Translations under genes and position numbers: made by a program
Assembly: GCA_034006575.1 (NCBI GenBank)
Contig: JAVESN010000001.1
Location: forward strand, 6,233-70,232
Source: Methanimicrococcus sp.
GTDB lineage: Archaea > Halobacteriota > Methanosarcinia > Methanosarcinales > Methanosarcinaceae
Length of the DNA stretch: 64,000 nucleotides
Direction of reading: 5' to 3'
In this document: piece after piece, positions 420 through 63,874 of the stretch
How the letters are laid out: each line of letters starts with the position of its first letter
Position numbering within the stretch: position 1 is the first letter of the stretch
The notes under the pieces: model-generated
Told to the model about the DNA's origin: nothing
The model's database searches: none
The model's input: only the letters and a program-made list of their open reading frames with translations

Positions 420-1313
420 TTACTTGTCAAGTCCGTATTTCGCAATATTTTTATCGGCCAACTGCTGAATCTTTTCGACTTCCTTGTCGCCGCCTTCCAT
501 TTTGAAAAGATGTTTGAAACGGGATTGAGATTTCAAATATTCTTCAACCGGTTTCGGATCTTTGATTTTCTTAACGGAAGTGACTTCGCCGTTTTCAATT
601 TCGTAAAGCGGCCAAAGACAGCAATCTACGGCAAGCTTGGCGATTTCAATCGTCTTGGATGAATCAAAACCCCAACCGGTCGGGCAAGGCGCATGCGCGT
701 GAATGTAAGTGGAACCGACCGTGTCGGCTGCCTTTTTCACTTTTTTCATCATGTCGTTGGCGTATCCGATGGAAGTGGTTGCCACATACGGAGAGCCGTG
801 AGCGACCATGATGGCCGGCATGTCTTTTTTATTGGTGTTGTTCCCGTAAGATTTGCTTCCGGCAGGACTCGTTGTCGTGGACGCGCCAAACGGCGTTCCG
901 CTGCTGCGCTGAACACCTGTGTTCATGTACGCTTCGTTGTCGATACAAACGTATGTGATATCGTGATTGCGTTCAAAAGCGCCGGACAAAGCGCCGATAC
1001 CGATGTCCATGGTGGATCCGTCTCCGCCCATCCCGATGATTTTCGTATTTCCTTTTCGCCCCATCGCAATCAAAGCCGCTTCAACGCCGGACGCGACGGC
1101 GGCGCCGTTTTCAAAAAGCGAATGAATCCACGGAACGTTCCAAGCGGTTCTCGGAAACGGCGTGGTCATCACTTCCAAACAACCGGTCGGGTTGACAATA
1201 ATACAATCCGGACCGACAGCCATCAAAACATATTTGGCAGCCAACGCGTCACAGCAACCGGCACAGCCGTTGTGACCGGCCGTCAATAAATTAAACGGTT
1301 TATTGTCGCTCAC
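420..1313 (-). CDS. porB: Pyruvate:ferredoxin oxidoreductase beta subunit
   Basis: GHNGCAGC, TPP-binding GGDG...DNEAYMNTGVQRS, APCPTGW motifs; last gene of por operon. Confidence 0.95.
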   Translation of the reverse strand: MSDNKPFNLLTAGHNGCAGCCDALAAKYVLMAVGPDCIIVNPTGCLEVMTTPFPRTAWNVPWIHSLFENGAAVASGVEAALIAMGRKGNTKIIGMGGDGSTMDIGIGALSGAFERNHDITYVCIDNEAYMNTGVQRSSGTPFGASTTTSPAGSKSYGNNTNKKDMPAIMVAHGSPYVATTSIGYANDMMKKVKKAADTVGSTYIHAHAPCPTGWGFDSSKTIEIAKLAVDCCLWPLYEIENGEVTSVKKIKDPKPVEEYLKSQSRFKHLFKMEGGDKEVEKIQQLADKNIAKYGLDK

Positions 1314-2524
1314 AACAATTCCTCCTTCACTTCATTAAACTGAGACTCAACCTCAATCTTTCCTGTTTCTGCAACTTTCTTTGTCGCTTCAATAATTTCT
1401 TTGATGTGGCTCGGGCGAATATCGCGGCCGCCATGACCGACCATGTAACTGATAATCGGTGTTCTGGCCGGCGTGTTGTAAAGACCGGCTTTGATTTCCG
1501 TAAACAAAGCGCCTTCATTTCGACCGATGGAAATATCTTTTTCAACGACGACAACCGCTTTTGCATTTTTTAAAGCGTTTGCAATTGCTTCTGTCGGGAA
1601 CGGTCGGAATGCGCGGACTTTTAAAACACCGATTTTTTCACCGTTTGCACGGTATTCATCCACGACGTCTTTAATCGTTCCGAGAAGAGATCCGAACGAA
1701 ACAATGACGACTTCCGCATCTTCCAAAGAATATCCTTCAATCAAACCGCCGTAATATCTGCCGGTGACGGCTTTGAAATCGTCGGCCGCTTTTTCAATGA
1801 CAGTCAACGCGTTTTTCATGGCTTGCTCTTGAGAGTATCTGAATTCCGTATAAACGGACGGGTCACCCAGCGTACCAAACGACATCGGGTTTTTCGGGTC
1901 TAAATAAACATCCGGTTTAAACGGCGGCAAAAACTCATCCGCTTCTTTTTGGTCCATCAAAACGACCGGCTCATAAACGTGAGACAAAACAAAACCGTCC
2001 ATACAAACCATTATCGGTAAAAGAACGCTTTTGTCTTCGGCAATTTTAAACGCTTGAAGAACCATGTCGGCGGCTTCCTGCGTGTCTTCGGCATAAATCT
2101 GAATCCATCCGGAATCTCTTTGCGCAATCGAATCCTGCTGATCGTTCCAAATGTTAATCGGCGCGCCGACGGCTCTGTTAACAACCGTCATGACAATCGG
2201 AAGTCTCATGCCCGATGCGTTAAACAAAGCTTCGTGCATCAAAAAAAGACCTTGAGATGTGGTGGCAGAGTATGTTCTGGCGCCTGCTGCCGATGCTCCG
2301 ATCAATGCGGAAATTGCGGAGAATTCGGATTCGACGTTAATATATTCACAGCCGGGAATGTCGCCGTCGGCCATAAATTGAGACAATTCTTCGACAATAT
2401 GCGTTTGCGGTGTAATCGGATAAGCGGAAATCACTTGCGGTCTGGCAACTTTGGCGGCGTGCGCGCTTGCGTAAGAGCCTTCCACAACGGACATTTTTGA
2501 TTTATCGTTTGGATTGACGGCCAT
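1310..2524 (-). CDS. porA: Pyruvate:ferredoxin oxidoreductase alpha subunit
   Basis: AYPITPQT, VESEFSA, TSQGL, NRAVGAP motifs; start set at ATG 2524 (MAVNP), overlapping the porD stop. Confidence 0.95.
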   Translation of the reverse strand: MAVNPNDKSKMSVVEGSYASAHAAKVARPQVISAYPITPQTHIVEELSQFMADGDIPGCEYINVESEFSAISALIGASAAGARTYSATTSQGLFLMHEALFNASGMRLPIVMTVVNRAVGAPINIWNDQQDSIAQRDSGWIQIYAEDTQEAADMVLQAFKIAEDKSVLLPIMVCMDGFVLSHVYEPVVLMDQKEADEFLPPFKPDVYLDPKNPMSFGTLGDPSVYTEFRYSQEQAMKNALTVIEKAADDFKAVTGRYYGGLIEGYSLEDAEVVIVSFGSLLGTIKDVVDEYRANGEKIGVLKVRAFRPFPTEAIANALKNAKAVVVVEKDISIGRNEGALFTEIKAGLYNTPARTPIISYMVGHGGRDIRPSHIKEIIEATKKVAETGKIEVESQFNEVKEELL

Positions 2525-2805
2525 TATTTTTCCTCCAAGGTCATTGTAATCACATCTTTCGGACATTCGTTTGCGCAAATGCCGCATCCTTTACAATAAT
2601 CGTAATCGGCTTTGTACAAACATTTTCCTTTGTCGTTTGCGGTTGCCGGGTCCGGATGAATACACATGTCCGGGCAAGCCACTTCGCAAATGGCGCAGCG
2701 AATACATTTGTTGTAATCAAAGACGGGCATAAACGTTCTCCAGCCGCCGGTTTTATTTTCCATGGCGGTTCCGGGGTAACAATAAGCGCCGGGTGTAATT
2801 TTCAT
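2524..2805 (-). CDS. porD: Pyruvate:ferredoxin oxidoreductase delta subunit (2x[4Fe-4S])
   Basis: KTGGWR motif, two CxxCxxCxxxCP motifs, DYDYCKGCGICANECP. Confidence 0.95.
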   Translation of the reverse strand: MKITPGAYCYPGTAMENKTGGWRTFMPVFDYNKCIRCAICEVACPDMCIHPDPATANDKGKCLYKADYDYCKGCGICANECPKDVITMTLEEK

Positions 2806-3357
2806 TTATTCCATCTCCTCTTTTACAAAATCGTAAGCGGCGCGAATCGCTTCGGCATTCTTTTCGCCGACTCTTCCGGCAAACCTCTCTTTGACGGCGT
2901 CTTGGATGGACTCGACAGCGACTTCTCCGGTCGTTGCGGCAAAAGCGCCGAGTAAAATCGTATTGACAATCGGGAGTCCGATGACATCCATCGCGATTTT
3001 GGTCGCGTCAACCGTCATAATTTTGGCTTTTGTGTCCAAATGTTTAAAAGCGTCGACAGACTCTTTTGTGTTAATGATTAAAGCGCCGGTTTCTTTTAAA
3101 CCGCCGGTCACATCAACAACATCGAGAAGAGTCGGGTCTTGAACAATGACATAATCCGGTTCATAAATTTGGCTTCTGACACGAATCGGCACATCGTCCA
3201 AGCGCGTAAAGGCCTGGACCGGTGCACCACGTCTTTCCACACCGAAAGCCGGGAAGGCTTGACTGAATTTACCGTCGGCAAACGCAGCGATGGAAAGAAG
3301 TTCTGCGGCTGTGACGGAACCTTGTCCGCCGCGCCCGTGAATTCTGATTTCTTTCAT
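2806..3357 (-). CDS. porC: Pyruvate:ferredoxin oxidoreductase gamma subunit
   Basis: [21 protein letters not shown] motifs. Confidence 0.95.
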
Positions 3358-4057
3358 TATGGTAACCTCTAAAGTGATAACTCAAGCAGATTTTTGGTTT
3401 AAGCGCGAAAAAAGACGACCACAGGTCAATCGTTTGTTTCGCAAATGTTTTATTTTTAAAAATACGCCTTTTTTAATAAAAGAGCCGGTTTACATAAAAG
3501 GAAAGATCATTTCAGAAGATATCGGTTAGTCGAATCATGAAATCGGTCTGAAATCCTCATACATACAATTTCGTTTTTTCCTCTCTTCTTCGTATTTTCC
3601 AAAATATATTTAAGATATCCTTGTCAATTTTTGATATCTAATAATAATGACAAATCCCTTATCCTATATTTTGTTATTAAGCTTTTGGTAAAGGTTACCG
3701 TTTGATTATAAATATTCGGTTTACAATGACATATGATATTTCTCGTTTGGCGCTCCCAATCGCTTTGTTTTCCCGTTTCGTTTTTTCACATTTATCATTT
3801 TTTCACGTGATTTTGTTTTACCGTTTTTTTCACGTGATCTTATTTTGCGGTTCATGGAATTGCCGTCGCCATCGATGTCGTTTTAATATTCATCGGAAAA
3901 AACGAGGCCGGTCCAAACACAATCCAAACGGCAAGCGGCAAACGGCAAGCGGCAAACGGCAAATTCCGTAAAACAACGCCGCGCCAAACAGCGAAAATGT
4001 CCTCTCGTTTTCAAAAATAAAAATGAAAACGGAGGTCCGATTTTTCATATCTCTCTT

Positions 4058-62855: not shown

Positions 62856-62867
62856 GGGTGAGTAAAA

Positions 62868-63398
62868 ATGGCAGAAGTTTTTATTTCCAAAACCGTTGAA
62901 GTTCCGGCCGGCGTGACGGTGGCTTACAATAACCGTATCGTCACCGTCAAAGGCCCCAAAGGCGAAAATTCCAAGGAATTGTATTTCCCCGACATTCAAA
63001 TTCTTGTCAGTGAAGGCGAAATCGTTGTCGGAACGGAAGTTTCCCGTAAAAAATACAAGGCTATGGTCGGCACGTACGCTTCTCATATTAAAAATATGAT
63101 TAAAGGCGTTACGGAAGGGTTTGAGTATAAGATGAATATCGTTTACTCTCACTTCCCGATGCAGACGAAAGTGGACGGTCAGACGGTCGTTATCAGCAAT
63201 TTCCTCGGAGAAAAGAAATCCCGTGTCGCCAAAATTGTCGGCGAAACGAAGGTTAAAGTCAGCGGCAACAGTGTCGTCATCACGGGGATTTGCAAAGAAG
63301 ACGTCGGACAGACAACCGCGAACATCGAACAGAAAACCAAAATCAAGAGATTTGACCCGCGTGTTTTCCAAGACGGAATTTATGTGGTGGAGAAATAA
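62868..63398 (+). CDS. rpl6: 50S ribosomal protein L6
   Basis: [22 protein letters not shown]. Confidence 0.98.
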
Positions 63399-63409
63399 AG
63401 GTGATTTAA

Positions 63410-63874
63410 ATGACAGAAGAAAATCAAAATACTGTTGAAAACGTCCAAACCGACGCACCCGCACTCTCAACCAATTTGCTTGATGCGGATCCTGAGATCA
63501 GACGTTTGTTTAAAGTCCGAAAAGTTCAGAAAGCCAGAAAACCGGTTTTCCACAAACAATGTCATCACAAATTTAAGAGATTGACCAAAGCGTGGAGACG
63601 CCCGCGCGGTCTTCAAAGCAAACAGCGCCGCGGTTACCTCGGCAAGGGTTACATTCCCTCCGTCGGCTACGGTAGCCCCGTTTTGACCAAAGGGCTTCAC
63701 CCGTCCGGGTATGATGAAGTTTTGGTTTATAATGTGGATGATTTGGTTTTGGTTGACCCCGAAATGGAAGCTGTTCGAATCGGTCGGCAAGTCGGCGGCA
63801 AGAAAAGAGCGGCTATCGTTTCAAAGGCCAAAGAATACAATATCAAAGTTTTGAATCCGGGAAAGGAGGCATAA
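63410..63874 (+). CDS. rpl32e: 50S ribosomal protein L32e
   Basis: WRRPRG..SKQR, GYGSP, GLHPSG. Confidence 0.96.

Follow-up and report, generated by a model that had tools for sequence, protein, structure and literature searches.

In-frame TAG codons and the probable reading of UAG as pyrrolysine in a Methanimicrococcus genome

Two small open reading frames (ORFs) in a 64,000-nucleotide stretch of archaeal DNA (hereafter the window; Methanimicrococcus sp., assembly GCA_034006575.1, contig JAVESN010000001.1, positions 6,233 to 70,232 of the forward strand) are interrupted by TAG codons. An earlier note on this DNA suggested that the genome reads TAG as sense, i.e. as pyrrolysine (Pyl), more widely than usual. 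Is TAG then still a stop codon in this organism? From the analysis of the whole genome, we consider it highly likely that UAG is read as pyrrolysine, TAG having gone from essentially all gene ends while being kept inside working genes. The suggestion of wider sense reading is therefore supported, and the sequence-level observations that could have spoken against it, when looked for, all failed to appear. The elements that raised the question are the following (positions counted from the first letter of the window):

6351..6866, minus strand: toxin-like ORF of 171 codons, with TAG at codons 43 and 162 (translation with TAG read through; homologues)
6738..6740, minus strand: candidate pyrrolysine codon, the in-frame TAG at codon 43 of this ORF (homologue alignment)
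6381..6383, minus strand: TAG at codon 162, with 9 more codons before a TAA (homologues end earlier)
21681..22079, minus strand: small phage-type ORF of 132 codons, with TAG at codon 56 (PHROG matches; homologues in genomes of the family)
21912..21914, minus strand: candidate pyrrolysine codon, the in-frame TAG at codon 56 of this ORF (translation and alignment)

The assembly to which the window belongs (G000; contigs are numbered with C) comprises 1.68 Mb in 132 contigs, with 40.8% G+C. The window encodes subunit A of the A-type ATPase (AtpA), which shares 97% identity with its counterpart in Methanimicrococcus hacksteinii, 96% with those in M. hongohii and Ca. M. odontotermitis, 93% with that in Methanolapillus and about 80% with that in Methanosarcina. 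The assignment to the Methanosarcinales proposed earlier was thus right, and these identities place the genome in Methanimicrococcus, a genus of hydrogen-dependent methyl-reducing Methanosarcinaceae which live in arthropod guts and use methanol or methylamines with H2 (PMC11362671).

We examined how genes end in the window, using a greedy non-overlapping call of ORFs of at least 100 amino acids (n = 59). Stops were TAA in 39 cases, TGA in 19 and TAG in one, so that 58 of the 59 end in TAA or TGA, as the earlier note had said of the confident genes; the sole TAG-ended one is, again as claimed, that at 6381-6737 on the minus strand. The in-frame TAGs reported at 6738-6740 and 21912-21914 are both there, and stop-free homologues cross both of them. 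No further coding-like frame with an in-frame TAG was found in the window besides 6351-6866 and 21681-22079, both on the minus strand. TAG is nevertheless scarce in the window as a whole, with 327 triplets observed in all frames of both strands against 729 ± 25 expected from dinucleotide shuffles. TAG accounts for 5.8% of off-frame stop triplets. A single TAG end among 59 ORFs does not differ significantly from this depleted background (P = 0.14), but it does from the 13.5% reported for Pyl-minus Methanosarcina strains (P = 0.002). The pattern in the window by itself is therefore suggestive only, which made a genome-wide examination necessary, and it is the genome-wide numbers that are decisive.

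Over the whole genome, the unfiltered ORFs of at least 100 amino acids end in TAA 855 times, in TGA 465 times and in TAG 32 times (2.4% of 1352). When a codon-usage filter and a minimum of 50 amino acids were applied instead, the resulting coding-like set contained 852 TAA, 442 TGA and 21 TAG ends (1.6% of 1315; table 11). Even against the depleted background, at most 21 TAG ends in 1315 has a probability of about 2e-14. These 21 are in addition unlike ordinary ends: with only TAA and TGA taken as closing stops, the frame beyond the stop has a median length of 105 codons after TAG versus 12 after TAA or TGA. All 11 post-TAG extensions of at least 30 codons have coding-like scores (median +0.29; Fisher P = 4e-5), whereas long extensions after TAA or TGA look non-coding (median -0.14). 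A variant of this comparison, in which each extension was closed by the other two stops, was dropped since the rarity of TAG biases it against TAA and TGA. We estimate that true TAG ends make up at most 1.6% of gene ends, and likely at most 0.6%.

Gene ends were also judged by homology. For this, 800 kb (36%) of the complete genome of a sister species (G027; 2,193,213 bp) was sampled, and its 657 ORFs were compared with the present genome by tblastn. Alignments reached the C-terminus in 346 conserved genes; 242 of these stop first at TAA and 103 at TGA, and no true TAG was observed, the lone apparent TAG end being an artefact, with the true TAA four codons (14 nt) upstream. Zero in 346 has a probability of about 1e-9 against the depleted background. 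The normal share of TAG at homologue-aligned C-termini that would be expected of a working stop codon is thus not seen.

The equipment for reading UAG as pyrrolysine is present. The pylT, pylS, pylB, pylC and pylD genes, which lie outside the window and which the earlier note proposed to locate, are all complete and intact on one contig; the four proteins score above the curated NCBIfam cut-offs and their genes hold no internal stops. Full-length Pfam matches extend over the TAG of the three methylamine methyltransferase genes.

C63:408-477: tRNA-Pyl(CUA), the sole tRNA with a CUA anticodon among the 40 found
C63:518-1882: pylS, 454 amino acids including the N-terminal domain, 375 bits to TIGR02367
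C63:1918-3036: pylB, 456 bits
C63:~3169-4263: pylC, 422 bits
C63:4359-5135: pylD, 276 bits
C87: mtmB, TAG at codon 202
C54: mtbB, TAG at codon 356
C54: mttB, TAG at codon 335

We then looked at what follows the TAG in the 21 TAG-ended coding-like ORFs. In 14 of them a domain or orthologue alignment crosses the TAG, as it does in one further gene, an RNase_T exonuclease on C117; crossing was judged against Pfam, NCBIfam and the sister genomes and not by the UniProt 30% rule of Kivenson et al. Most coding-frame TAGs that remain in this genome lie inside genes that stay homologous, coding-like and under purifying selection past the TAG. Besides mtmB, mtbB and mttB, the genes concerned include the following:

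HisG: TAG at codon 230, the HisG_C domain covering residues 211-286
C88:14227-15036, minus strand: Msr/FilR1-type regulator (PF08350), TAG at codon 163, domain at 131-260
S-adenosylmethionine (SAM) methyltransferase: TAG at codon 164, spanned by the domain model
C117: RNase_T exonuclease, TAG at codon 50, domain at 19-180
Dihydropteroate-synthase-like (DHPS-like) protein: TAG at codon 117, TIGR00284 matching over residues 1-400
C81:11172-12338, minus strand: radical-SAM protein, TAG at codon 186
C31:11944-12681, minus strand: ADP-ribosyltransferase-exoenzyme-like protein (PF03496), TAG at codon 104, a position with Lys or Tyr in paralogues

The PF03496 family is multi-copy, with four paralogues in G027 besides the C31 copy. 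The earlier note had located in-frame TAGs in accessory genes; this holds for both window ORFs, but the description is too narrow, the codon being found also in hisG and in the DHPS-like, radical-SAM and regulator genes. Its expectation that gene calling with code 11 splits or misses genes was borne out, since at least 15 genes are split or truncated in this way, both window ORFs among them. The residues aligned with the TAG vary from gene to gene. Orthologues of hisG have CAG, GAA, CAA or AAA (Gln, Glu or Lys) in this column, and the sister genomes have Trp in an HD-domain protein, Phe in the SAM methyltransferase, Thr in the RNase_T exonuclease and Leu, Phe or Arg in the DHPS-like protein. 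Such variety would fit a non-canonical residue at permissive sites rather than one standard amino acid. TAGs near the 5' ends of the pyruvate carboxylase B, 3-dehydroquinate synthase II and hydrogenase small subunit genes lie upstream of the Pfam domain starts and were not counted.

Frameshifts and other in-frame stops should be as frequent as TAG if these genes were simply decaying; they are not. The 346-gene sample contains six otherwise intact genes with an in-frame TAG versus one real pseudogene, at C120:~1364-2035, which, compared with its orthologue in G027, is broken by two frameshifts and an in-frame TAA. Beyond this pseudogene, no solid in-frame TAA or TGA was found in the conserved coding regions of the G027 sample once artefacts had been filtered, and the interruptions are therefore TAG-specific. 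The raw tblastn alignments did contain 34 TAA and 15 TGA, nearly all of them due to over-extended N-termini, to shadow ORFs opposite ribosomal genes or to alignment ends; the cases left after filtering lie upstream of true starts. A stop within an alignment at position 2593 of the window came from an upstream ferredoxin-type gene read in another frame.

Several TAG positions are shared between species. The hisG TAG is common to this genome and G027, a third congener having CAG. The TAGs of the Msr/FilR1-type regulator and of the radical-SAM protein keep their alignment column in six of six Methanimicrococcus genomes, with the proteins 63-76% identical. The regulator orthologue also holds one TAG in all three genomes searched of a sister genus (g5), apparently Methanolapillus, the identity of the position having been verified in the six Methanimicrococcus genomes only; paralogues of the regulator have no TAG. 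Of the 41 Methanosarcinaceae genomes searched, 40 have the radical-SAM gene, which carries TAG in Methanimicrococcus and one other genus: its orthologues hold one TAG in two genomes of genus g12 and none in g5. A third gene was followed across the same six genomes:

C62:17219-18178, plus strand: gene of 320 codons with TAG five codons before its end

In all six, the TAG of the C62 gene is followed by exactly four codons (Gln/Ser-Leu-x-Ala/Thr) and then by TAA or TGA. This tail shows synonymous changes, and the sequences diverge freely past the final stop, which indicates that the four codons are probably translated. A plain nonsense mutation would not be expected to survive such divergence with its downstream sequence intact. 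Since sister genomes share the in-frame TAGs, these are also unlikely to be assembly errors.

We propose that PylB, PylC and PylD would make pyrrolysine from lysine, as in established Pyl biology, and that the full-length PylS (454 amino acids) would charge tRNA-Pyl(CUA), which would read UAG in competition with the single canonical aRF1. As almost no gene needs a UAG terminator, read-through would be harmless and new TAGs could drift in; they would do so in core and accessory genes alike, and could then become fixed.

The two window ORFs appear, from their alignments, to be ordinary examples of this genome-wide state. The toxin-like ORF lies downstream of, and translationally abuts, an antitoxin gene:

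6867..7379, minus strand: SocA/Panacea-domain antitoxin gene (Pfam PF13274, E = 3.7e-12)

A homologue from a public assembly (P0004, 83% identity) spans residues 1-140 of the toxin-like ORF without a break, with Gln (CAG) at codon 43 and Leu in place of the Met that follows in the window; 6351-6866 is therefore one gene and not two. In this family, the column of codon 43 is TAG in G000, G012 and G027 and Ser, Thr or Ile elsewhere, so that in three species at 44-49% identity TAG stands in one shared loop, right before a VNVT motif. Among the homologues (L170-L174), the TAG of a fourth species lies seven columns upstream, and a fifth species carries two TAGs at other places. The family linked to Panacea thus seems to acquire or keep TAG recurrently. 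The second TAG of the ORF, at 6381-6383, could be either a real stop or a pyrrolysine codon with a short tail. In the phage-type ORF, PHROG 21731 and 30542 match residues 4-104 and 14-122 respectively, in both cases over the TAG (E about 5e-6). G018 and G027 hold stop-free homologues that align through the site, with Thr opposite codon 56 in G018 and an alignment gap in G027, and both keep the LP.E..G..YIV motif found 3' of the TAG. PHROGs and the family genomes gave these matches; a search for homologous proteins with the same ORF gave none.

Directly upstream of the Panacea antitoxin gene, at about 7400-7500 of the window, we observed an 18-nt tandem repeat, caagttctcaaataattc, in at least 5 copies with G/A variants. 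About 11 kb past the end of the window, at C44:81147-81950 on the plus strand, a long frame of KPIRKLIR-type repeats has a non-coding codon score and is probably repetitive DNA rather than a gene.

The main alternative to UAG being read as pyrrolysine throughout is that the code is ambiguous. UAG would then be both Pyl and stop, with read-through set by Pyl supply and demand as in M. acetivorans; a few genes would still end at TAG, and those holding a TAG internally would yield long and short products. We regard this as a real possibility, to which we give somewhat less than an even chance. It differs from the reading that we favour only in degree, and sequence cannot decide between the two. 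In Pyl-plus M. acetivorans, one TAG-holding gene gives long and short products, as seen for RdmS, and ambiguity is argued there to be a stable end state (Shalvarjian et al. 2025, PMC12626013). Our genome also keeps TAGs in a regulator and in a toxin-like gene, two kinds of gene that might benefit from partial read-through.

Several observations weigh against complete sense reading, and some of them favour ambiguity. A single canonical aRF1 is kept (580 bits, with the NIKS, YHCNSEF (YxCxxxF) and GGQ motifs), so that termination at UAG is possible, although its presence is no proof of its use at UAG. About seven short or poorly characterised TAG-ended ORFs have post-TAG extensions of 1-28 codons only. 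In C131:12186-12677 (minus strand), the TAG stands exactly at the TGA or TAA stop position of the G012 and G058 orthologues, which makes it the best candidate for a TAG at a terminator position; read-through would add only four residues, and the case therefore fits reassignment and ambiguity alike. The assembly is fragmented and has 82% marker completeness, though complete sister genomes also reach 80-82%, and genes were called with our own procedure, without Prodigal. Finally, TAG and CTA are depleted in non-coding frames too, so that part of the TAG scarcity is compositional.

Against ambiguity stands the fact that none of the 346 conserved genes ends in TAG, as well as the conserved four-codon tail of the C62 family. 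TAG has in addition been kept across speciation in hisG, in the DHPS-like gene and in a universally conserved radical-SAM gene, which would be hard without efficient read-through. In two species with low TAG use, every predicted site that could be detected contained Pyl according to Kivenson et al.

Composition lies at the heart of the other alternative, according to which only the methylamine methyltransferases involve special decoding: TAG and CTA would be avoided for compositional reasons, and the other in-frame TAGs would be nonsense mutations in decaying genes. Genome-wide, TAG occurs 8,764 times as a triplet against 68,132 for TAA and 62,672 for TGA; it lies about 2.2-fold below dinucleotide expectation in every frame, and the Leu codon CTA is nearly unused (152 versus 5,657 TTA in long genes). 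Both window examples are moreover accessory genes of a type that often decays. We nevertheless hold this explanation to be highly improbable, for it is contradicted by the tests run here: TAG ends are far rarer than the 5.8% of the already depleted background, only TAG interrupts otherwise intact genes whereas the one true pseudogene carries frameshifts and a TAA, core genes are affected, segments downstream of TAG are conserved and coding-like, and TAG positions are identical in six of six species despite protein identities of 63-76%. A tRNA-Leu(UAG) gene is present on C125 despite the scarcity of CTA.

Near-complete reassignment of TAG to Pyl in a few methanogen lineages, which the earlier note mentioned, has indeed been published, with Methanimicrococcus named. 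Kivenson et al. 2024 (bioRxiv 10.1101/2024.09.30.615893) re-called genes with TAG as sense and sorted those holding TAG into Categories 1-4, Category 1 being defined by an extension of >15 amino acids with homology on either side of the TAG. A genome with mostly Category 1 and no Category 4 genes was inferred to be fully recoded ("Genetic Code 34", Group C); Methanimicrococcus is among eight genera said to have numerous Category 1 genes, and the proteomic proof of Pyl at TAG given there is confined to M. burtonii and M. alvi. Our genome resembles this group in its complete Pyl machinery, in its Category 1 majority (14 of the 21 TAG-ended ORFs and the C117 gene) and in its low TAG frequency (2.4% unfiltered and 1.6% coding-like, versus a typical value of at most 5%). 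In our own gene calls, read-through creates out-of-frame overlaps of 34 nt at most, and Category 4 requires >60 nt; there are therefore no Category 4 genes. We observed no difference in kind, except that the proteomic proof belongs to other genera. By all sequence-level criteria the genome is thus predicted to belong to Group C / Genetic Code 34. As the genus is named in that list, the interpretation is supported but not new: the phenomenon has been known for this genus since 2024, and the genome is one more well-supported instance.

The comparison with M. acetivorans is more mixed. It belongs to the same family, Methanosarcinaceae, and its pylTSBCD cluster is of the same type and encodes a full-length PylS; both organisms retain aRF1 and have TAGs enriched in regulatory genes. 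In contrast, TAG ends are at most 1.6% here versus a median of 4.9% for Pyl-plus Methanosarcinaceae (PMC12626013), and no clear bona fide TAG stop of the rnfA type was found, except possibly that of C131:12186-12677. As in the Pyl proteins attributed to neutral drift in Methanosarcina (Thg1, PylB and others), the TAGs here lie at variable, tolerant positions, and sites such as those of HisG and the DHPS-like protein can be reached by a single substitution, e.g. CAG to TAG. Unlike them, several sites are invariant across one genus or two genera, which suggests that more than drift may be at work.

One form that this could take is that the TAGs retained in the Msr/FilR1-type regulator and in the Panacea-linked toxin-like gene are regulatory devices, in which full-length synthesis would report the supply of Pyl-tRNA. 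We think this unlikely. No methyltransferase or pyl genes were found in the neighbourhood of the C88 regulator. If it were true, this regulator would be the "Pyl-containing repressor" sensing read-through efficiency on which Shalvarjian et al. only speculated (PMC12626013), and this in a clade that is reported to have lost the methylamine regulator AmzR/MA2561.

For annotation, hisG, the DHPS-like and radical-SAM genes and both window ORFs should be called with TAG as Pyl. As for the biology of the family, whether UAG is fully reassigned or persistently ambiguous is in dispute, and the genus-wide TAG sites, in one case with orthologues from a second genus holding a TAG as well, offer useful test cases.

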